Below, piece after piece: positions 14,145 to 50,268 of a DNA stretch of 64,000 nucleotides (position 1 is its first letter; each line of letters begins with the position of its first letter). The translations under genes were made by a program, and so were the position numbers. This DNA is from Paenibacillaceae bacterium (lineage in GTDB: Bacteria > Bacillota > Bacilli > Paenibacillales > CANHGK01), in the NCBI GenBank assembly GCA_947460235.1, contig CANHGK010000004.1, positions 26,144 through 90,143 on the forward strand. Direction: 5' to 3'. The notes beneath the pieces were generated by a model. That model made no database searches and was not told where the DNA came from. It saw only the letters and a program-made list of their open reading frames with translations.

Positions 14145-14149
14145 CAAAA

Positions 14150-18401: not shown

Positions 18402-18950
18402 TTGACAATTATGAACGCATCATCCAAAGACGGTAACTTACATGACTCACTTCATGTCATTCAACAATTTGGTGATGTATTGAAAGTAAAATGTACGAAA
18501 GCAGATTTATGGGAAGTAGATCAACAAATCGTCCTGCACGATGAAGAAAACAACAATTTCTCGGCATTTTTAGTTCGTAAATTTGATACGTATCTTTATT
18601 TATATACGAAGTTACGCGGTCCAAGTTTAACTGAACGACGTAAGTTGCCTCGAATGGTTATGAGCACTTCGAGTACGATTCATTTAGGTGATCATGAAAT
18701 GAACACAAATACCGTTGATATCAATTGGGAGGGCTTTACGCTTGCGATTACGGAGGAATCTTCTCGATTGAAATTGAAATTGTTCAAGGGTAAACCTGAA
18801 TTAACCGTAACACTTGGTGATTGTACGTTACGTATGCCAGTAAAATTTATTCATGGCAAAAGTTCGCAAATTAAAGTTGGGGTTTTGATCAGCGATATCG
18901 ATCAAGCCATGTTCGAAAAATTATGTAATTACTTGATCACGATGAATTGA
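18402..18950 (+). CDS. hypothetical protein with a possible PilZ-like C-terminal domain
   Basis: 182 aa with a TTG start. ERRKLPR ... DINWEGF loosely resembles the RxxxR / DxSxxG PilZ motifs. Confidence 0.45.
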   Translation: MTIMNASSKDGNLHDSLHVIQQFGDVLKVKCTKADLWEVDQQIVLHDEENNNFSAFLVRKFDTYLYLYTKLRGPSLTERRKLPRMVMSTSSTIHLGDHEMNTNTVDINWEGFTLAITEESSRLKLKLFKGKPELTVTLGDCTLRMPVKFIHGKSSQIKVGVLISDIDQAMFEKLCNYLITMN

Positions 18951-25100: not shown

Positions 25101-25191
25101 CGCGAATGCCTACAAAAGTAAGCACATCTTGCGCTAAAAATAATACCATCGTAAAACAAAGTACCCATACATGAAAACGTTTGTTATTCAA
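22183..25191 (-). CDS. secreted GH13 alpha-amylase family enzyme with an N-terminal CBM25-like module and a long P/T/K-rich linker
   Basis: Likely TTG start at 25191, 10 nt after AGGAG, then a signal peptide. CBM-like TIYYQSG...YVHYGINGKWTTLPG...FNDGNNHWDSMGGKNY. GH13 regions DIVLNHTS, GVDGFRVDTAVH, IVGEV, VYVDSHD. Confidence 0.9.
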   Translation of the reverse strand: MNNKRFHVWVLCFTMVLFLAQDVLTFVGIRVSAFAGSGTTIYYQSGLSGTPYVHYGINGKWTTLPGQSMQTTSQSGWFQYVIADAPDSGTLEITFNDGNNHWDSMGGKNYKVDLPAQAVTIAESQLKIGAPDGISTTVNIKPIDQPDIQTTDVPDVTKEEPTITPTPKVVKKPAPIVTATPVPLKKPFPFPSVRPTTKLQQTKKPIVTATPVVIKKVTIIKPNSKFTSKPYFKATPKPIVKPTKKPISTASVAFVPVDQTNMKVIRVKKPSLEDILNGLVTKPIATPVRPTATPDPVYVTEEPSVTETPITTSTPTVKPTPTSKPIVVTATPEPTATNTPVVTFKPTPKTPVGVVKASEPLGGDMRDESIYFVMTARFDDGDSSNNRGGQFDEKAGNKANNDPMFRGDFKGLIDKLDYIKAMGFSAIWITPVVLNRSDYDYHGYHGYDFYRVDARLESPGATYQDLINDAHKKGIKIIQDIVLNHTSKWGLVGLYQFKAFGIRDKDWSWYYDQTNPDFVYDGLSVEPNSGKSYYNGDLWSTDEPSGNTCKNWGKPTKYRSKEGGIIYECQWPNPTTGMFPVELFHQCWIGNWEGEDARSCWIHEDLADLNTENETVQKYLLGAYEKYIDMGVDGFRVDTAVHIPRTTFNKVFLPELLNYAEKKWGEKGKDFYIVGEVAAFVNDKWNRGSSNQSPQFYTWKERKEYSSDLAKAALEMYQWENNQGTGSQPTSDNAFLKGNAYHKPDYSKFSGMNIIDMRMHMNFSDAGNAYYNGKDSDDVTNDATYNMVYVDSHDFGPNKSSFRYSGGTDAWAENMSLMWTFRGIPTLYYGSEIEFQAGKQIDCGPTCPLATTGRAYYGDEIKGNIKAADFGVTASADGKVAETMNKPLIKHLQRLNQIRRAIPALQKGQYSTEGVQGGIAYKRRFTEGSVDSFVLVTVSGDATFSGIPNGTYVDAVTGDKQNVSGGTLSAKCSGKGNMRAYVLELPGNPAPGKIGAAGPFLK

Positions 25192-25403
25192 TTCGACACA
25201 ACTCCTAATTAGTTTAAGAAAGCGTTTACACAACTAAGCATACCGAATCTCGAACGCCAATGCAAACCTTTTCTCATCTTTTTTAAGCACAAAATTTTAT
25301 GGCAACAAAAAAATAACCCTTTTGAGTAAACAACGATTGTCACCATAAAATTCTAGACATAATCGATCGTTTTCCCGAAGGGTTATTTTATTTTTTAAGT
25401 TAA

Positions 25404-28148
25404 TTATTTCAAGAACGGATCGTCTCCACCAATTTTTCCTGGAGCAGGATTGCCTGGTAAATCCAATACATACACACGCAAATTCGCTTTGCCATTGCAT
25501 TTTGCACTTAACGTTCCATTGGTTACTTCCTTCGTATCCCCAGTTACCGCATCAATATATGTTCCGTTTGGAATGTTTTTGAAGGTCGCATCCCCAGAAA
25601 TCGTCACCAATGCAAAACTATCTGTTTTGCCTTCCGTAAATCTGCGTTTGAACGACATATATCCGTCAATATCGCTCGTGGAATATTGCCCTTTTTGCAA
25701 TGCAGGAATGGCACGGCGAATCAAATTTAAGCGAATCAAATGTTTTGACAATGGAGATGCAAGTGTTTTGGCAACTTCTCCATCTGCAGTAAATGTACCG
25801 AAATCCGTCGCCTTCACATTACCCTGCAAGTGATCGCCAAAATATGCGCGCCCGGTTTGTTCTAAAGGTTTATTTGGACCAACGTCGACAGGATATTTAT
25901 CCCCTGGTTTAAACTCAATTTCACTACCATAGAATAATGTCGGTATGCCGCGGAACGTCCACATCATACTCATATTTTCAGCCCAAGCATCCATTCCACC
26001 ACTAAATCGGCCATTCGATTTATTTGGACCATAATCATGGGAATCCACATAGACAACATTCCATGTTGAATCATTGTAGTAGAGATCATCATTATGTTTG
26101 TTAAATGCGTTGCCTGCCTCACTAAAGTTCATATGCATCAACATGTCGATGACCGATAATCCTGAGTATTTACTGTAGTCAGGTTTATGATATTCATTTG
26201 CTTTTAAGAATGCATTATCACTCGTCGGTTGGTTTGATGTACCAAGTCCACTTTCATAAATAAATGCATCGTGCGCAGCAACAGTATCATCATCGCTAAA
26301 TTGTTTGCGTTCTTTCCACGTATAAAATGGTGCGGACAATGGCGCAACACCTTTATTCCATATTTCATGTACAAACGTCCCTGCTTCTCCAAACATAAAG
26401 AAGTCATCGCCACCTTCTTTTTTGAAGGCCGGCAAAAACGCTCGATTGAATGTATTTCGGCTAATATGCTTCACGGTATCAATCCGGAAGCCATCAACGC
26501 CAATATCAATCATTTTGTTGTACGCATTAATTAAATAATTTTGGACATCTTTATTTTCGGTATTCAAATCCGGACAATCCCATGTTAGCGAATTCCATTG
26601 TTCTTGCTCCGATTCCCAGCTATTAATATACCCCGCTTTATGATAATACGGGCTTTGCGCAAGTGATTCTGGACCACCGGTATCGGATGTAAACAATCCA
26701 ACAGCGCCATACGGTGAAGAGTGATTCAAAACGATATCTTGTGCGATTTTCAATCCTTTTTCATGGGCAGCTTTTACAAGATCGGCATATGTTGCGCCAG
26801 GTGACTCTAAGCGATGATCAATTTTATTGAAATCATAAATATGATATCCATGGTAGTCATATGCGCTTTTATTTTGCAATACTGGTGTCAACCAAATCGC
26901 CGTGAATCCAAGTGCCTTAATGTAATCTAACTTGTCAATTAATCCCTTGAAATCTCCCCGGAACATCGGATCATTATTTGCAGCATTCCCGGATTTTTCG
27001 TTTAATGGTCCGCCGTCATTATTCGAAGGATCTCCATCATTGAATCTGGCCGTTAAAATGAAATAAATCGTCTCTTCTCTAAAATCCCCGCCAAGTTTTT
27101 GATTAACCACTGCTGGTGGTCTCGTCGGCATGACGAACGCTACTTGATTCACAACTTTTTTCGGTGTTGCGGTTGGGCCTGCAGTTGGTGTTGCGGTTGG
27201 AACAATCGTAATCTTAGGAGTCCCTGTCGGAACGGGACTTGGTGTCGGTGTCGGTCTCGGTGTAATCATAAGCGCCGGTGGATCGGTTGGTGTCGGTTCC
27301 GTTGTCGGCTCTGGTGTCGACTCATTCGTCAATACTGGTTCTGGCGTCGGTGTATGAACGACAATCTTTGGTGTTGCGAATTGTAATGGTTTTCGAGTCG
27401 GTAATTTCACTTTTAATGAAGACTGATCAACTGGTACAAACACAACAATATCAATTGGTTGTTTGGTCTGTATTGGTTTGGGCGTTGTTTTTAATGGCTT
27501 TTTTATGGTCACTTTTGCGATTGGTTTATGCGTAATTTTTGGCGTTGGTTTCACAGTTTGTTTCACTGTTGGTTTCACAGTTTGTTTCACTGTTGGTTTT
27601 GGGATTGGTCTTGGACTTGGTCTTGGTCTTGGTGTAGCCGTTTTAAGTACAATCGGCTTTTTTGTTGGTGTTACAATGGGTTTCTTTGTTGGTGTTGGTT
27701 CTTCAAGTTGTTCGATTGGAGTTTCTGTGGGTTGTTCCGCCGGCGAAGTCACAGATATGTTCGGTGCTCCCGTTCGAACCAAGTGATCTTGAACAGTAAT
27801 TGCCGAGGTGCTCAAATCACTTGTATAGTTTTTGCCTTCTAAACTATCCCAATTGTTATTACCATCGTTAAATGCCATTTGAATATTTTTTGTAGCGTCA
27901 CTGTCTTCCAATGTGAATTCAAACCATTTTTCTCCAATGTTGGATTGCTTCATTTGAACGCCTGGAAGATTTGTCCAACTCCCATTCATTGCATAATGCA
28001 AAAATGGTGGACTCGAAAAAGCGGAGAGGTAGTAGATTGTAACTGAATTTGCGGCAATTACAGGAAATGCACTAAAACAATTCATAACAAATAACAAGAC
28101 GGATAATACGATGGTAAATCCTTTACTTTTCTTCTCGATACGATTCAA
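25404..28148 (-). CDS. secreted GH13 alpha-amylase family enzyme, tandem paralogue of 22183..25191
   Basis: TTG start 9 nt after AGGAG, then a signal peptide. CBM-like VTIYYLSAF...FLHYAMNGSWTNLPG...FNDGNNNWDSLEGKNY. GH13 regions DIVLNHSS, GVDGFRIDTVKH, MFGEA, VYVDSHD. Confidence 0.9.
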   Translation of the reverse strand: MNRIEKKSKGFTIVLSVLLFVMNCFSAFPVIAANSVTIYYLSAFSSPPFLHYAMNGSWTNLPGVQMKQSNIGEKWFEFTLEDSDATKNIQMAFNDGNNNWDSLEGKNYTSDLSTSAITVQDHLVRTGAPNISVTSPAEQPTETPIEQLEEPTPTKKPIVTPTKKPIVLKTATPRPRPSPRPIPKPTVKQTVKPTVKQTVKPTPKITHKPIAKVTIKKPLKTTPKPIQTKQPIDIVVFVPVDQSSLKVKLPTRKPLQFATPKIVVHTPTPEPVLTNESTPEPTTEPTPTDPPALMITPRPTPTPSPVPTGTPKITIVPTATPTAGPTATPKKVVNQVAFVMPTRPPAVVNQKLGGDFREETIYFILTARFNDGDPSNNDGGPLNEKSGNAANNDPMFRGDFKGLIDKLDYIKALGFTAIWLTPVLQNKSAYDYHGYHIYDFNKIDHRLESPGATYADLVKAAHEKGLKIAQDIVLNHSSPYGAVGLFTSDTGGPESLAQSPYYHKAGYINSWESEQEQWNSLTWDCPDLNTENKDVQNYLINAYNKMIDIGVDGFRIDTVKHISRNTFNRAFLPAFKKEGGDDFFMFGEAGTFVHEIWNKGVAPLSAPFYTWKERKQFSDDDTVAAHDAFIYESGLGTSNQPTSDNAFLKANEYHKPDYSKYSGLSVIDMLMHMNFSEAGNAFNKHNDDLYYNDSTWNVVYVDSHDYGPNKSNGRFSGGMDAWAENMSMMWTFRGIPTLFYGSEIEFKPGDKYPVDVGPNKPLEQTGRAYFGDHLQGNVKATDFGTFTADGEVAKTLASPLSKHLIRLNLIRRAIPALQKGQYSTSDIDGYMSFKRRFTEGKTDSFALVTISGDATFKNIPNGTYIDAVTGDTKEVTNGTLSAKCNGKANLRVYVLDLPGNPAPGKIGGDDPFLK

Positions 28149-35310: not shown

Positions 35311-36000
35311 TTAATTCCATTTGGCAACTGTATCTTTTTTCACGATTGATAAACTTGCATTACGATTCGCTACATCTTTTCCACTTAATGTTTTTTCAAC
35401 ACTCGACCATGTGCCTACTGTGTATTTATATTGAATGGTTGTCCCTGATTTCACGAGTGCTTTTGTATACCAAACGTTATTGGAACCATCTTTAGGAAAC
35501 ATCATGTAGCTTGTTGCAGACCATGCTTTATTACTAGAAGCGACGAATACCCGGTATCCCTTCGTTAATGTATCAGAAGGAACGGAAACTTCTAAATTGA
35601 CGACTCCATTGTAATTTGCGACTGTTTGTGTCGTATTCATATCATTCGTTCCTACATCGATTACACGGTTTGAAATTTCTTCGAACGAATTACCTTTTTC
35701 AAAGGTATTGGTTGTTCCAAGTGAAAATTTGAATTGATGTTTGCCTTGCGTCATCGGAATCGTTACTGTCCATTGACCGCTGTATCCGCTATAGCTGTAA
35801 CCGTAAGGTGATAAAGGAGTTGCCGTAGCGTTCCAACCGTTAAAATCCCCTGCAACATACACTTGAGCATCTGCTACATAAGGGCTATTTACGATGATCG
35901 TTACATTATGAACTGCTGGACTTGCTGCAAAGGCCGGCGAGATTAAGCTTACCATCATCATTATGACCAATCCTACAACTACCAATCCTTTTTTCACCAC
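35311..36000 (-). CDS. secreted protein made of two CBM20/CBM48-like starch-binding modules
   Basis: GTG start 8 nt after AGAGGTG. Signal peptide ...SPAFA. Module 1 VYVAGDFNGWN...GKHQFKF. Module 2 YRVFVASSNKAW...WYTKA...IQYKYTVGTWSSVE...NRN. Confidence 0.65.
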   Translation of the reverse strand: MVKKGLVVVGLVIMMMVSLISPAFAASPAVHNVTIIVNSPYVADAQVYVAGDFNGWNATATPLSPYGYSYSGYSGQWTVTIPMTQGKHQFKFSLGTTNTFEKGNSFEEISNRVIDVGTNDMNTTQTVANYNGVVNLEVSVPSDTLTKGYRVFVASSNKAWSATSYMMFPKDGSNNVWYTKALVKSGTTIQYKYTVGTWSSVEKTLSGKDVANRNASLSIVKKDTVAKWN

Positions 36001-36048: not shown

Positions 36049-36077
36049 AATGTATCACGATTGCACATTTCGAACAC
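36049..36077 (-). promoter_or_regulatory. promoter-like element GTGTTC-17-TACATT facing 35311..36000
   Basis: Read on the minus strand: ttcgGTGTTC gaaatgtgcaatcgtga TACATT. The -35 position is formed by the terminal repeat of array A. Confidence 0.35.
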
Positions 36078-36126
36078 CGAAGAATTTCCGAAAACATTCC
36101 ATTTCGGTACCGAAAAAACACCGAAA
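36074..36126. repeat. CCGAAA/TTTCGG repeat array A (5 cores, includes palindrome TTTCGGTACCGAAA)
   Basis: acaccgaagaatttccgaaaacattccatttcggtaccgaaaaaacaccgaaa. Confidence 0.9.
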
Positions 36127-36256
36127 TGAAAATGGCATGTCAACGAAAAGAAATTGAATGTATTCGCTTCCAATTAACTGAATTTTGAATCTTTATATCG
36201 ATTTAGTCACAATTCATCCAATTTGATCGTCACAGCTTTGACAAATCTCAATGTTT

Positions 36257-38497
36257 TTATTTCAAAATCATTTCGGATACACGGTCCAACAACACAGAAT
36301 TTTTATCACTACTCAACTCCCAAATCATTGCGCCCCCGAGTTTTTTGGATTTTAAGTAATCTAACTTCGCATCAATTGATGTAGGATCATCGTAACTGAT
36401 GTACGTTTGTTTTTTTTCATTATATAAATATGGAACTTTCGCAACATCATTCCAATACCGGTTATAACCGTTTTTATTGATATAATTCGCTTCCAAATCC
36501 ATGTAATCAAATACACCGCCTTCCCATGTCCCTTCTATACTAGCTCCGTCACAAGGCTGATATAAACCGTGATTTGTAGACACACAGCCTTTCCAACCAC
36601 GACCGTAGAATGCTAATCCGAGAACAATTTTCGAAGAAGCTACTCCCGCATTCTCATATGCCTTAATGGCGGAATCAACAGTAAATGTGGCTGCATTCAC
36701 CGAACGATCTGCCGAGTCAAAAAATAATGGCGTATTGTTTCCACTTATGGAGTCCCACCCGCCATGAAAATCATAACTCATGATATTGATCCAATCGACG
36801 ATTTTTGAAATTTGATCCAATTGTGTATTTTCGAGATATGCAGGACTGGCTCCTGAGGCAATCGTAAGCAAATATACTTTTTCGTCAAGTTTACCTGCAG
36901 CAGTTAATTGTTCTCGGATTTTTTGAAGTAACAAGGTGTAATTTAATCGATCTTCTGGTCGTCCAACGGTCAAACCACCACTGACAGGATACTCCCAATC
37001 CAAATCAACTCCATCAAATCCCCATTTCCTAATAAAACTCACCGCACTATTCGCAAATTTTGTGCGAGATGCATCAGTTAGCGCTATCGTTGAAAACTGA
37101 CTCGACCACGTCCAACCACCAACCGATATCATCGTTTTTAGATTTGGATTTTTCAACTTTAATTTTCTCAATTGGTTAAAATTCCCTCGTTTACATCCTA
37201 TATCCCAACAATCACCATCAAAAAATTTATCCGTATCCGCATACGTATCACCAATGACTATTTCTCCATTAGCAATGTTAGCAAATGCATAATTGATATG
37301 AGATATTTTTTGCGGATTAATTTGTGCAATTTGATAATTTCGGTCATAGGTTGACCAACTTGTGTAATAGGCAACAACTTTATTAGTAATATATTTGTTA
37401 GGTGTCCCTGATGGTTGTATCGTTGGTTGTATCGTTGGTTGTATCGTTGGTTGTATCGTTGGTTGTATCGTTGGTTGTATCGTTGGTTGTATCGTTGGTT
37501 GAGGTGCATTTACTATTTTCCAAACGCTCACGTGATCAGGTTGTTCTCCGCTGGTCCACCACTGCGCCATATATATTTTCCCTAAATAACTTACTTGATC
37601 GTTTGCTATATATATTTTTACCGGACTCCACGCCATCATAATATTCGGTTGGCTTTTCCAAACCTGCGACCGATCTGGATTTTCTCCTTTTGTCCACCAC
37701 TGCGCCATATACTTTATCATTTTGTATAACACAGTATCTCCTGAGTTGTATGTTTTTTCATTGGACCATTCTGAAATTATTATTGGATTCGTATCGATTG
37801 GAGATGGACTGATCGATGGTTTCGGGGATGGTGAGGGTGTTTTTACCGGAATAGGTGTCGTTGTTGGAATTGCATTTGCTGTAATATTCGCATCAACAAC
37901 TTGATAGAATGCATTTCCTGTATCTGCAATTTCCCAAACTGCTAAGATCACATGATAACCGGTGTGGTCCTTAGGTAACGTGCATGAATGCAACGGAGAA
38001 AGTGATGGTTTTGCTCCATTATCTTTCTTGAAACAAAATGGTTGAATATCAAAATCCGTACGTCTTAACGGTTGATTTGCATCCCATGTTGTTTTTGTAA
38101 TGTAATATTTCCATTCTTGCGTGGCATGCGCAGCTGTTAAATGCCATTGAAACGAAATGTTACCTTTTTTCAAATCTACTTTGCTCCAACGTTCTCTTTT
38201 TTGTTCAAAAAGTTCGCTATATTTTCCTGCCCCGGAAATCTGACCATCTTTCGGACCTGCTTGCGGATAATTACCAATAGCTTCTAAACTTTGTGGTTCA
38301 TATTGAATTACACCGCAATTTTTATTTTCACCTTGCTTACATAGCAATGCTCGACTCGGTGGTGACTCTAAATAACCATGTGCATATGTTGTTGAAAGTC
38401 CAATCGCAATCAACCACACATTTAAAAGACAAAAGAAAATTGCCATTTTGCTAAAGAAATCCCACATTTTACGCACATCAAAAAAAATACCATTCAT
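36257..38497 (-). CDS. secreted AA10 LPMO - 2x CBM5/12 - GH18 chitinase fusion
   Basis: ATG 38497 lies 7 nt after GAGGAG. Signal cleavage TYA|HGY leaves the N-terminal His of the LPMO His-brace (HGYLESPPSRALLC). Two CBM5/12 units (YMAQWWTKGENPD, YMAQWWTSGEQPD). GH18 catalytic motif DGVDLDWEYP. Confidence 0.85.
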   Translation of the reverse strand: MNGIFFDVRKMWDFFSKMAIFFCLLNVWLIAIGLSTTYAHGYLESPPSRALLCKQGENKNCGVIQYEPQSLEAIGNYPQAGPKDGQISGAGKYSELFEQKRERWSKVDLKKGNISFQWHLTAAHATQEWKYYITKTTWDANQPLRRTDFDIQPFCFKKDNGAKPSLSPLHSCTLPKDHTGYHVILAVWEIADTGNAFYQVVDANITANAIPTTTPIPVKTPSPSPKPSISPSPIDTNPIIISEWSNEKTYNSGDTVLYKMIKYMAQWWTKGENPDRSQVWKSQPNIMMAWSPVKIYIANDQVSYLGKIYMAQWWTSGEQPDHVSVWKIVNAPQPTIQPTIQPTIQPTIQPTIQPTIQPTIQPSGTPNKYITNKVVAYYTSWSTYDRNYQIAQINPQKISHINYAFANIANGEIVIGDTYADTDKFFDGDCWDIGCKRGNFNQLRKLKLKNPNLKTMISVGGWTWSSQFSTIALTDASRTKFANSAVSFIRKWGFDGVDLDWEYPVSGGLTVGRPEDRLNYTLLLQKIREQLTAAGKLDEKVYLLTIASGASPAYLENTQLDQISKIVDWINIMSYDFHGGWDSISGNNTPLFFDSADRSVNAATFTVDSAIKAYENAGVASSKIVLGLAFYGRGWKGCVSTNHGLYQPCDGASIEGTWEGGVFDYMDLEANYINKNGYNRYWNDVAKVPYLYNEKKQTYISYDDPTSIDAKLDYLKSKKLGGAMIWELSSDKNSVLLDRVSEMILK
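37413..37496. repeat. perfect 12-bp tandem repeat x7 (encodes PTIQ x7 linker)
   Basis: ggttgtatcgtt repeated seven times without a mismatch. Confidence 0.95.
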
Positions 38498-38643
38498 AAT
38501 ATCGCTCCTCAAGCTAAAATAATTTTCTGCATTAATTGGGCTTCTTGCATTAGGTGGGTAAAACGGAAATAGGAATAGAAGAAGTGAATCTAGAAAGTAG
38601 CAAACAAGAGGGTTTTGGAAGCGTTTTCTTGCGTTGTAAATTA

Positions 38644-38672
38644 ATAATAAATGTTGCTTTACGTGATGTCAA
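38644..38672 (-). promoter_or_regulatory. sigma-A-type promoter candidate for the LPMO-chitinase gene
   Basis: Minus strand TTGACA-17 nt-TATTAT, about 125 nt upstream of the ATG. Confidence 0.5.
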
Positions 38673-38744
38673 TGTACACTATTTTGAAAAGTTCATCTAT
38701 CCATGTATGCAATGCATGTTGAAGTTAGCAAATGGAGGAATCCT

Positions 38745-39880
38745 ATGTTTCAAAAAATAAGCGTTACAAATTGGGTCATTGGATTGATCGGACTTACCGG
38801 GTTGTTACTTTGAATTTTGTGGATTAGCGATATTCCAAATCATCCAATCGAATATTTTACTCGTTTTTATACACAAACGATGAATTTGTATCACGGTGAA
38901 CCGATTATTCGCTTCGGATATTACGGCATTGGATACCCATTATTTTTGAACTTGTTTTTTCAATTCACTGGTACACTCTCTATTGACAGTACACATTGGT
39001 TCAATATCTTTTGTTACATCGTTACATTTCTATGTTGAACAAATTGGATGAATCATACCGTAAAAAAATCCAAATGGAGAATTGTCAGCGCAGTAATGGT
39101 AGCTGAGTTTCCAAATTGAATTGCTGTTACGAATGTAACTAGTTCTCAATGCTTTAGTTTATTATTCACATGTTTTTAAATTCTAAATCATTTCGGACAG
39201 AATTACATAATATCACGATAGGTGCACTGATTGGCCTTTTAGCGATGAAAAAACCATTTTTTATAGCTTCCATTGAAGTCGTTTTATGCTGGGATTTTTT
39301 TGATACAAGTCATCTGGAAAGATTGGTTCCAACACGCAATTTTAATTATTTTAATGATTGGTCTCATATTATTCCATTTTTATGCAGTGTATACAACTGG
39401 AACGTTCTCCATTGTGTCTTATATTGGAGGATATAATGTGTTCTTAAATAATAATCAAAACCTAACCCGAGCATGGATGCCGATGAATCAAATCGAAAAA
39501 TCAGATTCATTCCGAAATCAACTCAATTAATTGTCCATATCCGCTTGATTGCCCAAATGCTGAAAAATATTATAAAAAAGAAGCTGTACATTTGATCATC
39601 GCTCATCCAAACAATTCTTAACCTTAGGTATCAAACGATGGTTGAATACATTTTGGTCCAAACATGATGATTTGACAACATAGGTTGCCGATAAATCCTG
39701 GATGAATAATGATGAACATTACAATTTTTAAAACCATGTACAGACACTTCAGAATTATTGGTACCGTATAACATTCATTTTAACCGTTGGAGGCACGATC
39801 GTTCCGACCTGAAGAGACCTTTGTTAGCGGTAATTTAGATTTTGTTTTTTTATGATTATTGAAATTGTTTTGGATGCAAA
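38745..39880 (+). pseudogene. decayed GT39/PMT_2-like membrane glycosyltransferase gene
   Basis: Good RBS (GGAGGA) and ATG at 38745, but the frame stops after 22 codons. Similarity continues in other frames (WISDIPNHP...YGIGYPLFLNLFFQF; YIGGYNVFLNNNQN) and is interrupted by several stops and frameshifts. The end is approximate. Confidence 0.5.
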
Positions 39881-39951
39881 TCATAGATTGTACTCGATGA
39901 AAAACGGGACACTCACAAACGGTTAAATACCGCTTGGGATGCCCCGTTTTT

Positions 39952-42900
39952 TTAATATGGTCTACCTGATTTTATTACGCCACCGGTTACTGTGTAAATG
40001 CCAGTTGAGAACGTGTAATTTTTCGAAGCATTATTATCCCATATCGTACTTCCATTATTAAAGCATGATTCAATACCTGAAGATGTTCCTACTGAAACGG
40101 TAATAACACTATATCCTGTGTAACCAGAAGAACTCATTGAAACACCAGGAGCCATCGTCCAAACACCACCAATTGGTCGATAATGAATATAAGCTGTTGG
40201 GAATGAATTTTTATAATAGACAGTGACAACATTCGATGGTGGTTCACCTTGACTTAAGATGCCATTATTAACTGTCCATATCCCGGTTGGTATGACGTAA
40301 TTTTGATTATTGTTGTTATCCCAACGTGTGCCGTTATCCGTAAACGCAGCTTTAGCGATTCCGGAAGGTCCACTTTGAATTGTTAATACCCAATACCCAT
40401 TCCCTGCATCTGCCATTGCAACACCTGGCATTGTCGTCCATTGAGTACCATTTAATGAGTAATGAATATTTGACTGAGTCCAAGCGTTATTGCGATAGAA
40501 GATTTTCACCGTATTGCTTGGAGAAGCTGTTGGCGTAACGGTTGGAACCGGTGTGATTGATGGTACCGGTGTAACCAGCGGTGTCGGTGTAGCCGAACCT
40601 ATTGGTGTAGATGTTGGAGAAGGTGTTGCATTTACAACGAAAAATGGTGAACCTTGACTCATCACTCCGTTGTTGATCGTCCAAATCCCTACCGGCACTG
40701 TATAGTTTTTGCTTGTATTATTATCCCATCTTGTACCATTATCTGTGAACGCAGCTTTTACTAATCCATTTCCGCCTGTTTCAATGACTCCAACCCAATA
40801 TCCATTCCCCGTGTCTGTTAACTTTAATCCCGGAGAAACGGTCCATGACGTTCCATTTGTTGTGTAATGGATATTCGCAGAGGTCCATGCAGTATTTCGA
40901 TAATATACCGTTACTTCAGTACTGGATAAATTAGGTGCACCAGATTGAATGTTTCCGTTATATACGTTCCATGTCCCAGGTTGGAAAGTATAATCTTTTC
41001 CGCCATAATTATCCCAATGTGTACCATTATCCGTAAATGCACAACGAACAATACCTTGGTTCGTCGTTAAGATCGTTGCCCGCCAATATCCAATGCCATA
41101 TTCACTTAGCTTCACACCAGGTGAAGTCGTCCATTTTATTCCATCCAATGAATAATGAATGTTCGCCTGATTCCATAGTGGATTGCGATAATACACCGTG
41201 ACAACGGTTGGGGTTGCACTTGGCGTATTTGTCGGCACAATCGAAGCCGTAACAAATGGTGTCGGTGAATTATTAATTGTAGGCGTCACTTGCGGTGTTA
41301 CCATTGGTGTAGTCGTTTGTTCAGGTATCGGAGTCAGCGTTGGTACTGCCGTTGGAATTGCACTATTTGTTGGCGCCGGTGTTGCTGTCAAAATTGGCGT
41401 CGCAGTTGGTACAGGAGTTGGTGTCCATATTACATCAGGAATTCCTTGCGTTAAGACTCCATTCTTTAATGTCCAGTTTCCTTGTGTAAATGAATAGTTT
41501 TTTCCGGCATTATTGTCCCAGCTTCCAATTCCGTCCGTAAAAGCAGCTTCAGAAATACTTGTAGCTGACCCTAAGCCAATAATCGTTTTATAATAAGAGA
41601 CTGAATCAAGGTATTGCATTTTCAAACCTGGCATTGCAGTCCAACTACTTAAATTTGTTTTGAAATGAATAAACGTATTTTGTAACCCTTTGTAATAAAT
41701 CGTAACCGATGCAGCACCCAAATTCGGCACACCAGCACTTACAACTCCATTATCGATCGTCCAAATTCCTGAACTGAGACTGTAATTACGATTCCCATTA
41801 TTGTCCCAGACATTAGTCCCTGAATTAAATGCTGCTTCGATACCTGCAACACTTCCTAGTGCAATCTCAATACTAGAATAACCAGCATATTCGCTTTGGT
41901 TCATTTTCGCACCTGGTATAACTGTCCAGGAACCACCAAGCAGATGATAATGTACATATTGTGTTAAACTCGCTGACTTATAATAGATCGTAACTTTTTG
42001 ATTTACCGGACTTGGTGTAGGGTTCATTGGTGTACTTGTCACTACTGGTGTACTTGTCACTACTGGTGTACTTGTCACTACTGGTGTACTTGTCACTACT
42101 GGTGTACTTGTCACTACTGGTGTGCTTGTCACTACTGGTGTGCTTGTCACTACTGGTGTGCTCGTTGGTGTTACCGTAGGTATGAATGTAGGAACCGTAG
42201 TATTCGTAGGCATGGTTCCATAAGTAACGGGTATACTTCTATCTGATACTGTCCCCAAGAGATCACTTGCTGTAATTACATATTGATATATTAGAGCAGA
42301 ATTAGCATTATTATCTGTAAAATTTGTACTTGTTGTTCTTCCCAACTTTGCATACGACCCTGGATCTGAAGACGTAACTTCTCTTCGGTAAACCTCATAC
42401 CCATTAATTCCATCATCATCTTCAGGTACAGACCACGATAAACTAACTTGAGAATTATTCAGTTGATTTGCTATTACATTTTTCGGTGCATCGGGAACTT
42501 GATTGATAGAAACATTAAGTCCGATATTTGGATATCCACTCAACTCGACTTCAAACCATTGACCTGCATCTAGCAAAATATTCATTAATTGTTTTTGTGG
42601 TGTATAAAGTCTTGTTCCATTTCTAGTGAATACTGTAGTCATTCCATCTACGTTATATATTTGATTCGTTGATGTGTCTGTCACTTGAATTGAATTGGAT
42701 TGTATTGTGTATTTTTTACCTGTACCATAAACTAAAAACCGTTTACGAACGGTATCTAACCCGGCATGATCACCTACATCTATCGATACCGTTGCCGAAG
42801 GATTTGACAAATTCCCCGCCATATCTCTCGCTTTAAGGTAAAAAGTATTAATCTTATTCTTCGTATTTAATGTAAAGATGCTAACATCCGTTCCTGACGC

Positions 42901-45162
42901 TGTTGCAATTGGTCTAGTATCGTCTCCACCAAAAACTAAATAATCACTAACTTCTATGTTATCCGTAGATGGGGACCATGAGAACGATACCTTTTCTTCC
43001 GTTGCAGTAACCGTAACATTTGTTGGGATCGTTGGAGCAATTGAATCAGTAAGATCAACTGGAATACCTGTACTTACCAATGAGAAACGTTGTGCATTTA
43101 ATACAGTTACTCCAACAACCTCAACAGTCCACGTCCCAATTTGAGGTGCAGGGATGATTAATCTTTCCACCGTGTTATATAAGCTGTTGCTTGTATAAAC
43201 TTTTCCGCTAGGATCCGTAATTCGCAAATCAAGATTATTTATTACTGGGATATTGGACAATAAATCACTCGGCGGATCAATCCATGACATTGCTGCACGT
43301 AACGGTTTTGTAGAATCGTTAATTTGAATTTGATAAACCGCTGATTTTCCTCCAGAAATACTCCGTTGATCGGAATACATCCAATCCCCCGCAGGAATTG
43401 CTGAGTCAAGGTTTAATCTTCCCCAACCTTGTTTATCCATGCCTACGCCACTTAATACATCTGCACCATTTACGAGTGCAGCTTTGATTAATGAGGCACT
43501 TGGATTAATATTTTTAGTCTTAAAAAATTGTCGTAACAATGCAGCTGACCCACTAACCATTGGAGTAGCCATACTTGTACCTTGCATCGACGTATAATAT
43601 ATATTTGTTCCATAAATTGGACTTGATGAATGTGATGATCGTGTTGATACAACAGCGCCTGCACCAGGTGCAACCAAATCGGGTTTTACTCGCTGATCGT
43701 ATGCCGTTGGGCCTGCGGCGCTCCAAGATGCGACCATATCACTTCTAGAAACGCCATTTAGCACATTCGTCGCATTAATTGACGCTCCAACGGTTAGCAT
43801 ATTTTTTGCCATCGAAGGTTCTTCCAGATAGCAGTTGTTTCCCGCAGCACCGACATACACAAACGTATTCTTATAAGTGGCATCAGTCGGATCCCACTCT
43901 TGATGGTTATAAATAAAATTATCGACTTCTTGTGAATAAATACTATATTCATTAAACGTATAATTTGCATAATCTCTTGCTCGTATCGTCGCGTCACAAG
44001 GATCACCATATGAATAACCATATGTCCAACTATTATTACTTACTCGAGCCCCATGATCCCAAGCTTCTTGCATCGATTGATCATTCGAAGGTGATTGAAA
44101 ATCAATACCAAACAACTTTGCTCCAGGGGAAATACCTTTATATCCTGTATTATTTCCATTTGAAGCAATAATTCCGCCTACATGCGTACCATGTCCAATT
44201 TCATCCCATGTGAATGGTAATGCGCCATACGTGATCGAACCATTTAATGCATTTCCTACGTCAGGGTGCATTTGATCCAACCCAGTATCAACCAACGCAA
44301 CCAATTCTCCAGATCCGTCAATGGTAGAACTTGTTGAACTAAGTCGATTTAAAGCTACATCTGTTTTCGTAATATTTCTTGCTGTTTTCAATGCTGGAAT
44401 CGCTTTTACTTTGGCTGGTTGAATGTATACAATTTCGGGAGATGAAGCAATCGCCAAAATATTCGAACGTTCAATTTCACATTCAACGAGGGACAAATCA
44501 ATTTTTGAAATTTGTTTTGCGTTCAATAAAACTAATAATTTAGAAACAGAATCATACGATTTTTCGTCCCATAATTTTAAAGCAACCTTTACCTTAGTAG
44601 ATTGATCCACGGAAGGAATCACATGATGATTTACATCTATTAAACGTGAGTCTAATTTCATAAAATCTTCAATATTTATTAATGATAAAATGTTAACGTC
44701 CGATTGGAGTTGCGGAATAATACTTTCCGGAACTCTGATCCGATATGAATCTGTGGATAAAGGCGAACCAAATTTACCACCCAATAATTCAATCGTTTGC
44801 CTAACCGTGTCAAAAACATCCGGTTTCAATTCCAACAACAACTGAATGCTTTCGGAATCTTGAATGTTTTTCAGAACATTTTGTGTTTTATTTTTTAATT
44901 TTAGTGTTTTTGAAGGCTTAAATTCACCAAAACGAGTTTTGATCGATCGCACAATATTTTTTGGAGCTGGTTCCGTTCCAAAATACAATGGACTCGCTTC
45001 AATGACTTTGTCATTGTTTTTAGCGTTTGGAACTAATGAATTCGAAAAAACAGGAGTTGATGACGCGTAGGATGGAGATGCAAGCGCAACGGCAACAGGA
45101 AAAATCACCTGCATAATCATTAGCAACGTGCAAAAAAGGTACCAAAATTTGTTTCGAGACAT
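39952..45162 (-). CDS. secreted multidomain S8 subtilisin-like protease with Fn3-like domains and six CBM25-like modules
   Basis: ATG 45162 lies 9 nt after GAGGTG. Signal peptide. Catalytic triad contexts VALVDTGLD, GHGTHVGG, GTSMATPMVSG. Six repeats of the pattern V(T/K)(I/V)YY...(I/V)HY...W(T)..PG..M...FxxGxxxWDNNxxxNY. Confidence 0.9.
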   Translation of the reverse strand: MSRNKFWYLFCTLLMIMQVIFPVAVALASPSYASSTPVFSNSLVPNAKNNDKVIEASPLYFGTEPAPKNIVRSIKTRFGEFKPSKTLKLKNKTQNVLKNIQDSESIQLLLELKPDVFDTVRQTIELLGGKFGSPLSTDSYRIRVPESIIPQLQSDVNILSLINIEDFMKLDSRLIDVNHHVIPSVDQSTKVKVALKLWDEKSYDSVSKLLVLLNAKQISKIDLSLVECEIERSNILAIASSPEIVYIQPAKVKAIPALKTARNITKTDVALNRLSSTSSTIDGSGELVALVDTGLDQMHPDVGNALNGSITYGALPFTWDEIGHGTHVGGIIASNGNNTGYKGISPGAKLFGIDFQSPSNDQSMQEAWDHGARVSNNSWTYGYSYGDPCDATIRARDYANYTFNEYSIYSQEVDNFIYNHQEWDPTDATYKNTFVYVGAAGNNCYLEEPSMAKNMLTVGASINATNVLNGVSRSDMVASWSAAGPTAYDQRVKPDLVAPGAGAVVSTRSSHSSSPIYGTNIYYTSMQGTSMATPMVSGSAALLRQFFKTKNINPSASLIKAALVNGADVLSGVGMDKQGWGRLNLDSAIPAGDWMYSDQRSISGGKSAVYQIQINDSTKPLRAAMSWIDPPSDLLSNIPVINNLDLRITDPSGKVYTSNSLYNTVERLIIPAPQIGTWTVEVVGVTVLNAQRFSLVSTGIPVDLTDSIAPTIPTNVTVTATEEKVSFSWSPSTDNIEVSDYLVFGGDDTRPIATASGTDVSIFTLNTKNKINTFYLKARDMAGNLSNPSATVSIDVGDHAGLDTVRKRFLVYGTGKKYTIQSNSIQVTDTSTNQIYNVDGMTTVFTRNGTRLYTPQKQLMNILLDAGQWFEVELSGYPNIGLNVSINQVPDAPKNVIANQLNNSQVSLSWSVPEDDDGINGYEVYRREVTSSDPGSYAKLGRTTSTNFTDNNANSALIYQYVITASDLLGTVSDRSIPVTYGTMPTNTTVPTFIPTVTPTSTPVVTSTPVVTSTPVVTSTPVVTSTPVVTSTPVVTSTPVVTSTPMNPTPSPVNQKVTIYYKSASLTQYVHYHLLGGSWTVIPGAKMNQSEYAGYSSIEIALGSVAGIEAAFNSGTNVWDNNGNRNYSLSSGIWTIDNGVVSAGVPNLGAASVTIYYKGLQNTFIHFKTNLSSWTAMPGLKMQYLDSVSYYKTIIGLGSATSISEAAFTDGIGSWDNNAGKNYSFTQGNWTLKNGVLTQGIPDVIWTPTPVPTATPILTATPAPTNSAIPTAVPTLTPIPEQTTTPMVTPQVTPTINNSPTPFVTASIVPTNTPSATPTVVTVYYRNPLWNQANIHYSLDGIKWTTSPGVKLSEYGIGYWRATILTTNQGIVRCAFTDNGTHWDNYGGKDYTFQPGTWNVYNGNIQSGAPNLSSTEVTVYYRNTAWTSANIHYTTNGTSWTVSPGLKLTDTGNGYWVGVIETGGNGLVKAAFTDNGTRWDNNTSKNYTVPVGIWTINNGVMSQGSPFFVVNATPSPTSTPIGSATPTPLVTPVPSITPVPTVTPTASPSNTVKIFYRNNAWTQSNIHYSLNGTQWTTMPGVAMADAGNGYWVLTIQSGPSGIAKAAFTDNGTRWDNNNNQNYVIPTGIWTVNNGILSQGEPPSNVVTVYYKNSFPTAYIHYRPIGGVWTMAPGVSMSSSGYTGYSVITVSVGTSSGIESCFNNGSTIWDNNASKNYTFSTGIYTVTGGVIKSGRPY
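42032..42165. repeat. 18-bp tandem repeat, about 7.5 copies (encodes TSTPVV linker)
   Basis: gtacttgtcactactggt x5 exact, then gtgcttgtcactactggt x2, then a degenerate copy. Confidence 0.95.
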
Positions 45163-45352
45163 TAAGGGGTACACCTCACACTTTCATAAAAATCGGGGGT
45201 ATATTTATCAATCGAGTAAACAATTAAATAAAAGTAATTTCATTCAAACGTTTTCATGTTTATGTATTAGTATAAAACAAGTTTTTCGAGTTGAAAAGCC
45301 ATTGAACTGAATTGACAAAAATTCTCCTTATTCTTTTCCTGAATTTTGAACA

Positions 45353-45413
45353 AAAAAATCCGCATCCATCTGAACTGTGACCACTAAGATGGTCACAGTT
45401 CAGATGGATGCGG
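45353..45413 (-). terminator. very strong rho-independent terminator (24-bp perfect stem)
   Basis: ccgcatccatctgaactgtgacca / tggtcacagttcagatggatgcgg with a 6-nt loop, followed by T7 on the minus strand. Confidence 0.8.
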
Positions 45414-45469: not shown

Positions 45470-45670
45470 TTAAATCAAGCGGTGAGGACCAAGCGCATGA
45501 TACATTGGATGTTTAACTACCGGATATGGTGATGTTAAAGATCGAAACGATTCACTAACTTTTCCTGTTTCATCATTACTATGATCATCATCGTTATTGC
45601 CAGATCCAATTAAAGGGGTATATGCATAAAATAACGTTATCATTTCAATAGGATATTGCGGTGTATTCAT
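45470..45670 (-). CDS. small hypothetical protein (66 aa)
   Basis: ATG lies 9 nt after GGAGGA. Bounded by a promoter-like element and the strong terminator. No recognisable domain. Confidence 0.45.
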   Translation of the reverse strand: MNTPQYPIEMITLFYAYTPLIGSGNNDDDHSNDETGKVSESFRSLTSPYPVVKHPMYHALGPHRLI

Positions 45671-45704: not shown

Positions 45705-45734
45705 ATTCTACACCTTGAACATGCGTTTGCGCAC
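45705..45734 (-). promoter_or_regulatory. promoter-like element GTGCGC-18-TAGAAT facing orf66
   Basis: Minus strand: ttcgGTGCGC aaacgcatgttcaaggtg TAGAAT. The -35 position is formed by the terminal repeat of array B. Confidence 0.35.
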
Positions 45735-45854
45735 CGAAGAATAACCGAAAACTTTTGATTTCGGTTATTCTTCGGTTTGATTTCGGTCACGTTACGGCAC
45801 CGAAATCAATCCACTGTGAAAACTTTTCGGTAAAAAGAACGGAATCTTCGGTGT
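45732..45854. repeat. CCGAAA/TTTCGG repeat array B (8 cores; 18-bp perfect-stem palindrome; 11-bp inverted repeat)
   Basis: accgaagaataaccgaaa-ACTTTTGA-tttcggttattcttcggt (45733-45776). ttgatttcggt-N11-accgaaatcaa (45777-45809). Further units at 45825 and 45846. Confidence 0.9.
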
Positions 45855-45879
45855 ATTTTTAGTTAGTTTGCTTTATGAT
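45851..45879 (+). promoter_or_regulatory. promoter-like element GTGTAT-17-TATGAT facing right from array B
   Basis: ttcgGTGTAT ttttagttagtttgctt TATGAT. Confidence 0.3.
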
Positions 45880-45885
45880 TTAAAT

Positions 45886-46010
45886 AGACAAAGAACAAAT
45901 CGAACTAACCAATAATCTTTCCTCACCATCAATATGCTCTTCGCATTCCCCGTATTAGCCTTCATGTTTCGAAAACGTCTGGTCTCCCCGACCAGACGTT
46001 TTCGGTTTTA
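45886..46010 (+). ncRNA. candidate short transcript (about 120 nt, C-rich) between the array B promoter-like element and a terminator
   Basis: Bounded by the element above and the hairpin 45972-46002. No ORF with an RBS. Contains ctttcctcacc and ttcccc tracts. Purely predicted. Confidence 0.25.
45972..46010. terminator. stem-loop terminator candidate (13-bp perfect stem)
   Basis: aaaacgtctggtc-tcccc-gaccagacgtttt, then cggtttta. The orientation is ambiguous. Confidence 0.5.
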
Positions 46011-46332: not shown

Positions 46333-46361
46333 ATTTTAGCAATGAAAGCGCTTTAAAACAC
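46333..46361 (-). promoter_or_regulatory. promoter-like element GTGTTT-17-TAAAAT facing orf70
   Basis: Minus strand: ttcgGTGTTT taaagcgctttcattgc TAAAAT. Confidence 0.4.
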
Positions 46362-46505
46362 CGAAAGAAAACCGAAAACTTTTGATTTCGGTTTTCTTTC
46401 GGTGTTACTGCGATTTGATTTCGGTATGATTTCGGTATTACTGCGATTTGATTTCGGTACCGAAATCAAATCTCTTCGTTAATCTTTCGGTTATTTTTCG
46501 GTGTC
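46357..46505. repeat. CCGAAA/TTTCGG repeat array C (10 cores; 21-bp perfect-stem palindrome; 20-bp direct repeat x2; 28-bp perfect palindrome)
   Basis: aacaccgaaagaaaaccgaaa-ACTTTTGA-tttcggttttctttcggtgtt (46357-46406). actgcgatttgatttcggta at 46407 and 46440. GATTTGATTTCGGTACCGAAATCAAATC at 46445-46472. Confidence 0.95.
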
Positions 46506-46529
46506 AGTTGTGATTTTACATGATAGTAT
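46501..46529 (+). promoter_or_regulatory. promoter-like element GTGTCA-17-TAGTAT (with TG at the extended -10 position) facing right from array C
   Basis: ttcgGTGTCA gttgtgattttacaTGa TAGTAT. Confidence 0.4.
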
Positions 46530-46535
46530 TAGGTT

Positions 46536-46688
46536 ATGAACAACCCCTCCATAATAAACGAAACTTCCACATACTTGCCGGAGAAACATTCGCTTCCTTC
46601 CCAAGGAAACAGTTTCACCCAACCTCTCAAACCACCTGCAATTTAGAATCGCCTGCAACCGAGCTCCCACGGTTCAGGCATTTTTTAT
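46536..46688 (+). ncRNA. candidate short transcript (about 150 nt, C-rich and G-poor), or a leaderless 36-codon ORF
   Basis: Lies between the element above and the terminator 46651-46688. Contains cccctcc, cttccttccc and cacccaacctc tracts. An ATG sits at the predicted +1 (46536) and opens 36 codons without an RBS. Purely predicted. Confidence 0.3.
46651..46688 (+). terminator. rho-independent terminator
   Basis: gcctgcaaccg-agctccca-cggttcaggc followed by T6. Confidence 0.6.
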
Positions 46689-47062
46689 TGTTTGGTTCAT
46701 TCGTAGCTCCCGTTAAGATATTTCACTAATATTTTGAAGTAATTCAACTATGAATTACACGATATGCAGATTGCTTTTACGAGTCATTTCAACATGTCAC
46801 AGTAAGCAATACAGCTCAAACAACGTCGTTAATCGGGGGCGAATGTTTTGAGTGTATTTTAGTAAAACTAACTAGCCGGTACATACGATGTTATAAATAT
46901 CATTTAGATTGAATAATATGATATTTTTAGTGTATTATAGAGCAAAATCGATTGCACACGAAAGAAGGATTTCATCTACTGTTAGCGAATGTATAAATCA
47001 AACCCTTTTCAAACAGATAGTTTTTCGTAGGGATTAATTTAAAGTGAAAGGAGCTGTTGGTT

Positions 47063-50098: not shown

Positions 50099-50127
50099 AT
50101 CGTATCATTTATTCATCACGCTTACAC
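50099..50127 (-). promoter_or_regulatory. promoter-like element GTGTAA-17-TACGAT facing 49557..50057
   Basis: Minus strand: ttcgGTGTAA gcgtgatgaataaatga TACGAT. Confidence 0.35.
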
Positions 50128-50231
50128 CGAAAAATCCACTGCGAATTACCGAAAAAATACCGAAAGAAATTCATTTCGGTACCGAAAAAATACCGAAAGA
50201 AATTCATTTCGGTACCGAAAAAATACCGAAA
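50124..50231. repeat. CCGAAA/TTTCGG repeat array D (9 cores; 33-bp tandem repeat x2.6, each copy with TTTCGGTACCGAAA)
   Basis: accgaaaaaataccgaaagaaattcatttcggt at 50148-50180 and 50181-50213, with a partial third copy. An outer acaccgaaaaatccactgcga lies at 50124. Confidence 0.95.
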
Positions 50232-50268
50232 AAAAACACGTGAAAAAGTTCTTTTCACGTGTTTTTTT
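50231..50268 (-). terminator. terminator after the anti-sigma gene
   Basis: aaacacgtgaaaa...cttttcacgtgttt flanked by A-rich and T-rich runs. Confidence 0.7.

Follow-up and report, generated by a model that had tools for sequence, protein, structure and literature searches.

A palindrome-rich spacer of a Paenibacillaceae-like bacterium is laid out as a lattice of 11-bp blocks and is a candidate bidirectional array of activator sites

The operators of Streptomyces PhoP, a regulator of the OmpR/PhoB family, are composed of direct repeat units of 11 nt (PHO boxes), of which at least two adjacent ones are needed and six or more occur in the complex operators (PMC2275107). Poorly conserved units that lie between good ones are bridged by cooperativity, the deletion of 1 nt from a unit cripples binding, the phoD operator exceptionally uses both strands, and the protein mostly activates (PMC2275107). 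The SARP activators, such as AfsR with its afs box, bind heptamers in direct repeat, 11 or 22 bp apart, that overlap the -35 element of promoters with a poor -35 and -10; two side-by-side protomers contact region 4 of the sigma factor, the box has its centre near -29.5, and 8 bp separate its 3' repeat from the -10 (PMC10936776). Regulators of the NarL/FixJ type recognise 7-bp units that occur singly, directly repeated or inverted within multi-site regions upstream of the promoters they activate, the inverted 7-2-7 arrangement being the preferred, high-affinity one (PMC4549865). We analysed a stretch of 64,000 nt of contig CANHGK010000004.1 (assembly GCA_947460235.1, Paenibacillaceae bacterium; positions 26,144 to 90,143), hereafter the window, with a focus on the intergenic element at 46357-46505 (array C; all positions count from the first letter of the window). 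The original prediction had described array C as nested palindromes plus a direct repeat. That description says too little: the element is a 143-bp lattice of 11-bp blocks, and its layout is probably that of a bidirectional array of upstream activator sites.

The window contains 51 copies of the heptamer TTTCGGT (ACCGAAA on the other strand), where 13.4 ± 3.6 would be expected; the copies concentrate in four groups between genes (arrays A to D; Table 1). The module CCGAAR-N5-CCGAAA-N8-TTTCGGT is found seven times where 0 are expected. The heptamers hold one residue modulo 11 per array and orientation (31/32), and the offset between forward and reverse heptamers is +4 in all four arrays; within array C, 7/7 forward heptamers start at 10 mod 11 and 3/3 reverse heptamers at 6 mod 11. 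For the distances between heptamers of the same orientation the mean cosine is 0.99 at a period of 11 and at most 0.32 at all other periods tested. The constant residues and the constant offset together imply a gap-free tiling of 11-bp blocks that can be laid in either orientation. With respect to the plus strand we denote these blocks as F (nnnnTTTCGGT), R (ACCGAAAnnnn) and x (degenerate or other). Both the lattice and the block consensus, WWKW-TTTCGGT-R, were computed directly. Outside the arrays, a scan of the window and of 7 kb of added flank with a position weight matrix recovered only isolated blocks at background level, and the left flank (the 7 kb beyond the window) yielded neither an array nor a regulator.

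The symmetry that had drawn attention to the spacer is present base by base. The inverted repeat has arms of 21 bp (46357-46377 and 46386-46406) that are 100% complementary around an 8-nt loop, ACTTTTGA; the 28-bp palindrome, GATTTGATTTCGGTACCGAAATCAAATC, is perfect; and the 20-mer ACTGCGATTTGATTTCGGTA occurs at 46407 and again at 46440, where 2 further nt are shared leftward, to give 22 identical nt. These features can be traced to the lattice. The palindromes arise because opposed blocks abut, head-to-head or tail-to-tail: the inverted repeat with its 8-nt loop results from an RR|FF junction, the palindrome reaches 28 bp because both blocks at the TTTCGGT|ACCGAAA (F|R) junction carry TTGA, and the direct repeat is there because of a tandem duplication of 33 bp, that is, of three blocks. 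Folded as single-stranded DNA, the complete element reaches -37.6 kcal/mol where 200 dinucleotide shuffles give -14.2 ± 2.6 (z = -9.0), with -23.6 kcal/mol for the inverted repeat (z = -8.65) and -10 kcal/mol for the palindrome with its 14-bp arms (z = -4.9). The sequence of array C is unchanged across five independent metagenome assemblies. Arrays A and B likewise do not vary between the assemblies found, among which a second one spanning array D was not recovered.

The likeness between arrays B and C is confined to the blocks (47 bp at 91%); their promoters, open reading frames (ORFs) and plus-strand transcripts are unrelated, and the products of orf66 and orf70, the genes behind B and C, respectively, have no significant similarity. 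The blocks are therefore the conserved part. An additional element of the type ACTGCGA was observed at 46407-46413, 46440-46446 and 50138-50144, with ACTGTGA in array B at 45813-45819; it occupies blocks that miss the heptamer in three of the four arrays, and its orientation with respect to the gene is constant. This element may represent a degenerate block, bridged cooperatively, or the site of a second factor.

Array C was said to be flanked by divergent promoter-like elements, and so it is: the plus-strand element at 46496-46529 mirrors the minus-strand element at 46366-46333. The same geometry recurs at the six array edges that face a gene or short transcription unit (A-, B-, B+, C-, C+ and D-; Table 1). 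Read on the strand of the downstream gene, YTTCGGT is followed by G at 6/6 edges, against 3/25 of the inner heptamers. TAnnnT follows the heptamer after exactly 21 nt at five edges and after 22 nt at the sixth (background 0.019 per position), and at four edges it is extended to TGnTAnnnT (background 0.0012 per position; ~0.07 composites would be expected window-wide for one fixed spacing). These spacing statistics were computed on the edges alone; offset 21 is also hit from some of the inner heptamers, solely through the lattice. At 17 bp upstream of the -10 the hexamer is in each case a poor match to a -35, and a usable -35 is present at 0/6 edges, while ribosome-binding sites of the GGAGG type and start codons lie 64-80 nt past the proximal heptamer. 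The two blocks nearest each promoter are always aimed at that promoter, so that block orientation and promoter direction are linked, a relation that, like the fixed distance to the -10, was computed directly. At four of the six edges (A-, B-, C-, C+) two adjacent tandem blocks face the promoter, and at D- and B+ one x block separates the proximal block from the next good one. From this geometry we infer the transcription start sites (TSSs) given in Table 1; relative to the predicted starts, the proximal block pair covers about -55 to -34, of which the last heptamer takes up about -40 to -34. The edges are laid out like sigma-A promoters that need an activator placed beside the -35 or replacing it.

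Table 1. Arrays, symmetric features, predicted promoter elements and associated transcription units (positions within the window; edge heptamers given where located)
Feature	Position	Strand	Description
Array A	36076..36130	.	RRFRR
Array B	45733..45852	.	RRFFFxRxFxF', F' shifted by -1; perfect 18-bp inverted repeat; bidirectional
Array C	46360..46502	.	RRFFxFFxFRxFF; 13 contiguous blocks, 143 bp
Array D	50126..50235	.	RxRRFRRFRR; 33-bp unit, 2.7 copies at 98% match
Inverted repeat, 21 bp, 8-nt loop	46357..46406	.	Junction of two R blocks (orf70 promoter side) with two F blocks
Palindrome, 28 bp	46445..46472	.	F/R junction, two TTGATTTCGGT blocks
Tandem duplication, 33 bp (three blocks)	46381..46459	.	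2.4 copies, 91% match
Edge A-	36057..36049	-	TGA TACATT (TGATACATT), predicted -10; predicted TSS ~36042
Edge B-	45705..45710	-	(TG)TAGAAT, predicted -10 of the orf66 promoter; 22 nt after proximal heptamer; predicted TSS ~45698
Edge B+	45874-45879	+	TATGAT, no TG, predicted -10; 21 nt after heptamer 45846-45852; predicted TSS ~45886
Edge C-	46333..46341	-	TGC TAAAAT (TGCTAAAAT), predicted extended -10 of orf70; 21 nt after heptamer 46366..46360; predicted TSS ~46326
Edge C+	46521..46529	+	TGA TAGTAT (TGATAGTAT), predicted extended -10; 21 nt after heptamer 46496-46502; predicted TSS ~46536
Edge D-	50107..50099	-	TGA TACGAT (TGATACGAT), predicted -10; predicted TSS ~50092
Secreted CBM20 protein	35311-36000		Operon head, with SNase nuclease and amidase; behind array A
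orf66	45470-45670	-	Gene behind array B
Putative short C-rich transcript	45886-46010	+	~125 nt, from right edge of array B; ends at bidirectional terminator 45970-46004
orf70, 70 aa	46069..46281	-	Downstream of array C, minus-strand side; GGAGG ribosome-binding site
Short unit right of array C	46536..46690	+	~155 nt; ATG at predicted TSS, 36-codon ORF to 46646, intrinsic terminator 46652-46690
Orphan membrane protein, 166 aa	49557-50057		Behind array D

We read array C as a bidirectional upstream array of activator sites for one DNA-binding protein and give this reading a probability of about 0.68. One sequence-specific protein would recognise the 11-bp block, with one protomer per block, and the protomers would spread cooperatively along the strict lattice; the two tandem blocks proximal to a promoter would place a pair of protomers that touches, recruits or stabilises the sigma-A RNA polymerase. 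The inner blocks, among which the degenerate x blocks may be bridged cooperatively, would raise the occupancy and sharpen the response, and a single assembly on array C could serve both divergent promoters, that of orf70 leftward and that of the short unit rightward. The orientation of the blocks would switch inside the array because there are two outward-facing promoters to serve, and the 21-bp inverted repeat and the 28-bp palindrome would follow from this switch; three of the blocks would have been added by the 33-bp duplication. The same protein may control arrays A, B and D, and the four arrays probably let one activator switch on a small local set of orphan genes. The multiple cooperative sites of the original prediction thus are the best reading, in a modified form: the unit is the 11-bp block with its 7-bp core, used in either orientation, and not a palindromic site for a dimer. 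Apart from the binding of a protein and activation rather than repression, we infer the class of the binder: a winged-helix protein of the OmpR/PhoB type is the likeliest candidate, an assignment that we make tentatively.

Several points weigh against this reading. The window with its 7 kb of flank encodes no classical DNA-binding regulators apart from ECF (extracytoplasmic function) and SigI sigma factors; all promoters and start sites are predictions. The arrays are so alike that part of the statistical signal could reflect recent copying and not selection, a concern that is strongest for array D, with its perfect 33-bp copies, and for the 47-bp match of 91% between B and C. The mixed orientation of the blocks is unusual for operators of the OmpR/PhoB type, and the 11.0-bp lattice slips from the 10.5-bp helical phase of B-DNA over 143 bp. 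Finally, the reading finds no support across species: scans of 185,579 species genomes and of the JGI metagenomes turned up no related array, and the target genes are orphans.

The number of blocks in array C (13) exceeds what a simple activator needs, and similar 11-bp TTTCGGT arrays are present in the non-coding DNA of a few phage or plasmid-like contigs; both would suit a cooperative repressor or silencer, for example one of the ribbon-helix-helix (RHH) or ParR/omega type that coats the 11-bp iterons and by its polymerisation occludes or loops the promoters. The ParR protein of plasmid R1, a cooperative repressor on the 11-bp iteron array of parC, provides a precedent. However, the array stops at about -34 in 6/6 cases and never extends over the -10 or the predicted start, the six promoters lack a -35 and four of them have an extended -10, as is typical of activator dependence, and the neighbourhood is free of par, RHH and other genes for small DNA-binding proteins; we consider repression unlikely. 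We judge it similarly doubtful that the arrays are non-functional or selfish repeats, either minisatellites made by slippage or iteron or centromere remnants of a mobile element. The tandem 33-bp copies are indeed perfect or nearly so (98% in D, 91% in C), the four arrays lie within 15 kb and are associated with orphan genes, comparable 11-bp TTTCGGT repeats occur on phage contigs, and recent duplication inflates part of the statistics. Slippage nevertheless fails to explain two orientations on one lattice or the constant +4 offset, and the spacing to the -10 is identical at six independent edges with unrelated flanks. The arrays also differ from dispersed repeats such as repetitive extragenic palindromes (REP) and miniature inverted-repeat transposable elements (MITE), in that there are only four clusters, with a differing block order and a fixed distance to the -10. 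Moreover, transposase, integrase or replication genes are not present here, the neighbours are ordinary chromosomal genes, and the associated proteins have no PHROG match.

The perfection of the 21-bp and 14-bp-arm palindromes and their very stable single-strand folds (z = -8.7 and -4.9), together with the comparable inverted repeat of array B, would fit the proposal that the palindromes extrude as cruciforms under negative supercoiling and form a supercoil-sensitive switch, an idea that was also part of the original prediction. The analysis did not support it. The fold z-score declines from C (-9.0) and B (-7.5) to D (-4.3) and A (-2.2), and long inverted repeats occur only in B (18 bp) and C (21 bp), the two arrays with promoter-like elements at both ends; since A and D share lattice and promoter geometry without such stems, the potential to form a hairpin or cruciform is not a conserved property and the symmetry tracks bidirectionality. 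What is conserved is the heptamer sequence and the 11-bp phase, neither of which is needed by a purely structural element, and an 8-nt loop as in the 21-bp repeat should hinder extrusion; a cruciform switch is thereby very improbable. Equally improbable is that the array is transcribed and acts as RNA, as a structured 5' leader of orf70 or as a terminator or attenuator. A consensus scan lists a minus-strand promoter-like site (46540..46513) that would read through the array, and two array hairpins were flagged as terminator-like on the plus strand, but such promoter-like sites are no commoner than in shuffled sequence (6 versus 7.7 expected), and the hairpins, with AT-rich stems and tails TTGATTTCGG and TCTTCGTTAA, lack a proper U-tract and lie upstream and not downstream of genes. 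The four loci differ in array composition and have no RNA fold in common, whereas they do share the lattice in the DNA and a constant distance to the -10; the array has no match to an Rfam family. A more adventurous form of the protein-binding idea, which we think improbable, holds that a protein of an unrecognised family polymerises on the 11.0-bp tiling and reads the blocks both ways, block orientation encoding promoter direction, and that the resulting 143-bp filament fires both promoters and coordinates orphan micro-proteins and C-rich small RNAs (sRNAs), perhaps with a link to cyclic di-GMP through a syntenic PilZ gene and perhaps with a code that is shared with phages.

The genes that would be served by the activator arrays are for a large part without relatives. 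orf70 and the membrane protein behind array D are orphans among 5.8 billion proteins, and in an exhaustive HMMER search of 1.84 billion representative proteins the single relative of orf70 was a protein of 78 aa (P0123; 36% identity, E = 1e-5). The contig that encodes it (2,390 bp, JGI sample 3300059473) has the gene divergent from a PilZ-domain gene, with 333 bp between them, and the PilZ/orf70 gene pair is common to this contig and the window, which suggests that a functional link between PilZ and orf70 is conserved. The PilZ protein was considered as the binder by analogy with MrkH; this was unsupported, the protein being acidic (isoelectric point 4.8) and without a sequence match in the PDB. 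The AlphaFold model of orf70 is of low confidence (predicted local distance difference test, pLDDT, 66) and gave no significant fold match. For the short unit on the right-hand side of array C there are two readings, a leaderless micro-ORF whose 36 codons encode MNNPSIINETSTYLPEKHSLPSQGNSFTQPLKPPAI and a C-rich sRNA: the RNA contains 14% G and 32% C, with CCCCUCC-like motifs, folds with a z-score of -3.74 and has no match in Rfam. The putative transcript from the right edge of array B has a similar composition (29% C, 14% G) and contains only tiny ORFs, none with a ribosome-binding site. Real intrinsic terminators are present separate from the arrays, at 45363-45410, 45970-46004 and 46652-46690. 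The one at 45363-45410, on the minus strand and 3' of orf66, has a very long perfect stem (20 bp, 10 GC pairs) that gives weak and meaningless matches to microRNA families in Rfam; a search of Rfam with 35-52 kb of the window returned nothing relevant.

The search for similar arrays elsewhere was extended over genomes, metagenomes and viruses. The three-heptamer module gave 26 isolated matches in the species genomes, in unrelated phyla, none clustered and several within kinase coding sequence, and 50 matches in the JGI metagenome contigs, all isolated or part of satellite repeats of the CCGAACCGAA type; in the literature, the heptamer strings returned primers and papillomavirus E2 sites only. 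The viral collection contains a few genuine 11-bp-phased TTTCGGT repeats, located in non-coding regions of phages. On a phage contig with a family A DNA polymerase (L104/L112, IMGVR_UViG_3300009169_000007), two TTTCGGTACGA-TTTCGGTACG pairs lie upstream of an orphan 229-aa gene, at which the blocks are aimed and which adjoins the DNA polymerase A replication module; five ACCGAAAAGCT units were found on a second contig (L107, IMGVR_UViG_3300005853_000017), and a third (L102) carries five heptamers at an 11-bp period, one CTTCGGT followed by four TTTCGGTGGTA units. These phage repeats share the heptamer and the period with the arrays, and the L104 unit, GTACCGAAATC, nearly equals the array C block TACCGAAATCA; unlike the arrays, they are direct repeats only, with 2-5 units, and on L104 a -10-like hexamer follows the heptamer after 16 nt and not after 21. 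No protein shared between the phage contigs and the window was identified. The design of heptamer plus 11-bp period is not unique to the source organism.

Two other viral matches were rejected. L091 (IMGVR_UViG_2519103102_000001) was considered as a case of the same module, yet its unit is an TCGGTTACC iteron beside a primase/DUF927 gene; at its positions 1300-1600, TCGGTTACC iterons are densely packed at a spacing of ~11 bp, GCGGGTTTGAGGT motifs recur, and the gene immediately upstream is an 830-aa primase/DUF927/HTH_56 gene. This iteron field probably is the replication origin of a prophage. GATTTCGGTACCGAAATC, the 18-bp core of the array C palindrome, matches 34 viral contigs, of which 33 (L113-L145, prophage contigs of ~62% GC) carry one and the same conserved terminator hairpin beside a tRNA gene, GGCCGCTGATTTCGGTACCGAAATCAGCGGCC, that is identical to GATTTCGGTACCGAAATC in its loop-proximal part; the match is a coincidence and not homology.

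The window belongs to a metagenome scaffold of 337.6 kb (~39% GC) with ordinary chromosomal genes of the Paenibacillaceae type. The nearest homologues of the conserved neighbour genes, in Cohnella, Paenibacillus and Chengkuizengella, are ~57% identical, and for the molybdopterin oxidoreductase that was taken as anchor gene no homologue exceeds 57% identity; with best homologues this distant, the source is a deep-branching, Paenibacillaceae-like lineage without a close sequenced relative. A protein with a Trans_reg_C domain is not encoded in the window or in the 7-kb flank, and the window does encode several hybrid histidine kinases. Large sensor proteins, four in number, are clustered between 6164 and 22044. 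All of them have a receiver domain and three are recognisable hybrid histidine kinases; the sensor at 10371-14147 in addition carries a second HATPase-like region and an Hpt domain. Such a cluster, which also contains a weak PilZ-like protein (18402-18950), suggests a multi-step phosphorelay with a terminal regulator outside of the window.

Some further features were observed in the same region. The nuclease/amidase operon behind array A is headed by a small secreted CBM20 protein, and starch-binding modules generally occur on unusual partners here (22183-28148, 35311-36000 and 39952-45174), including a 1,740-aa S8 protease with six CBM25 modules; CBM25 is also present on two alpha-amylases. 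A segment of 1.4 kb without a long ORF (38550-39950), with overlapping frame-shifted fragments that resemble a membrane protein, is probably a decayed pseudogene between the gene for a chitinase/lytic polysaccharide monooxygenase and that of the S8 protease. Tandem repeats within coding sequence lie at 42028-42159 (18 bp, 7.3 copies) and 37412-37501 (12 bp, 7.5 copies).

If the activator reading is true, the cis-regulatory code of an uncultured and deep-branching bacterium, akin to the Paenibacillaceae, would be complete, with its block, its lattice, its rule of orientation and its distance to the -10. Such a code could be used to capture the regulator (by DNA-affinity methods or DNA affinity purification sequencing, DAP-seq) and to predict the regulon genome-wide; several orphan genes would then make up one co-regulated set with the two short transcription units, which are not annotated. 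Array C would also offer a natural example of perfect palindromes and direct repeats that come from the tiling of one asymmetric block, without selection for symmetry, and a caution against taking palindromes for dimer sites or cruciforms.

How the arrays relate to the systems introduced above can be summarized as follows. With the sites of NarL-type regulators they share the 7-bp recognition unit and the mixed arrangements upstream of promoters, but the inverted pairs are 7-0-7 (TTTCGGT|ACCGAAA) or 7-8-7 and never 7-2-7, and NarL sites follow no 11-bp lattice, whereas all sites here do. With the SARP sites they share heptameric repeats at a periodicity of 11 or 22 bp. The last heptamer, however, ends 21 nt (once 22) before the -10 and the proximal pair is centred near -44.5; given the 8 bp of SARP, the defining feature of that class is therefore missing. 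SARP sites furthermore are direct repeats only, and no SARP/BTAD gene was found here. In the ParR-parC system of plasmid R1, runs of 11-bp iterons flank the promoter and are bound cooperatively, in a filament-like manner, by a repressor that is encoded alongside; the arrays differ in being four, chromosomal, each upstream of a different gene and short of the core promoter, and partition genes (a ParR/ParB-type binder or a partition NTPase) are not present in the window. The Spo0A box, the PurBox, the CodY and GerE sites and the promoter elements of sigma-D, -H, -K and -I were compared by eye and rejected, all for a mismatched core or spacing. The PhoP operators of Streptomyces remain as the closest documented architecture. 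They differ from the arrays in their core (GTTCAYY and not TTTCGGT) and in their targets, which here are orphans and not phosphate-related; the arrays routinely use both orientations, following promoter direction, and array C devotes 13 blocks to two divergent promoters. Because every array mixes F and R, where a PhoB-type operator keeps to one orientation, and for want of a cognate response regulator, we do not file array C as a member of the OmpR/PhoB class. The arrays nevertheless have a strict 11-bp unit with 6-7 conserved and 4-5 variable positions, like the conserved and variable part of the PhoP unit, and at least two adjacent direct units at the promoter (4/6 edges); the poor units of PhoP match the x blocks, and its sensitivity to the loss of 1 nt matches the strictness of the lattice. 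By this analogy, array C most resembles a multi-unit operator of the OmpR/PhoB type and may work like one.

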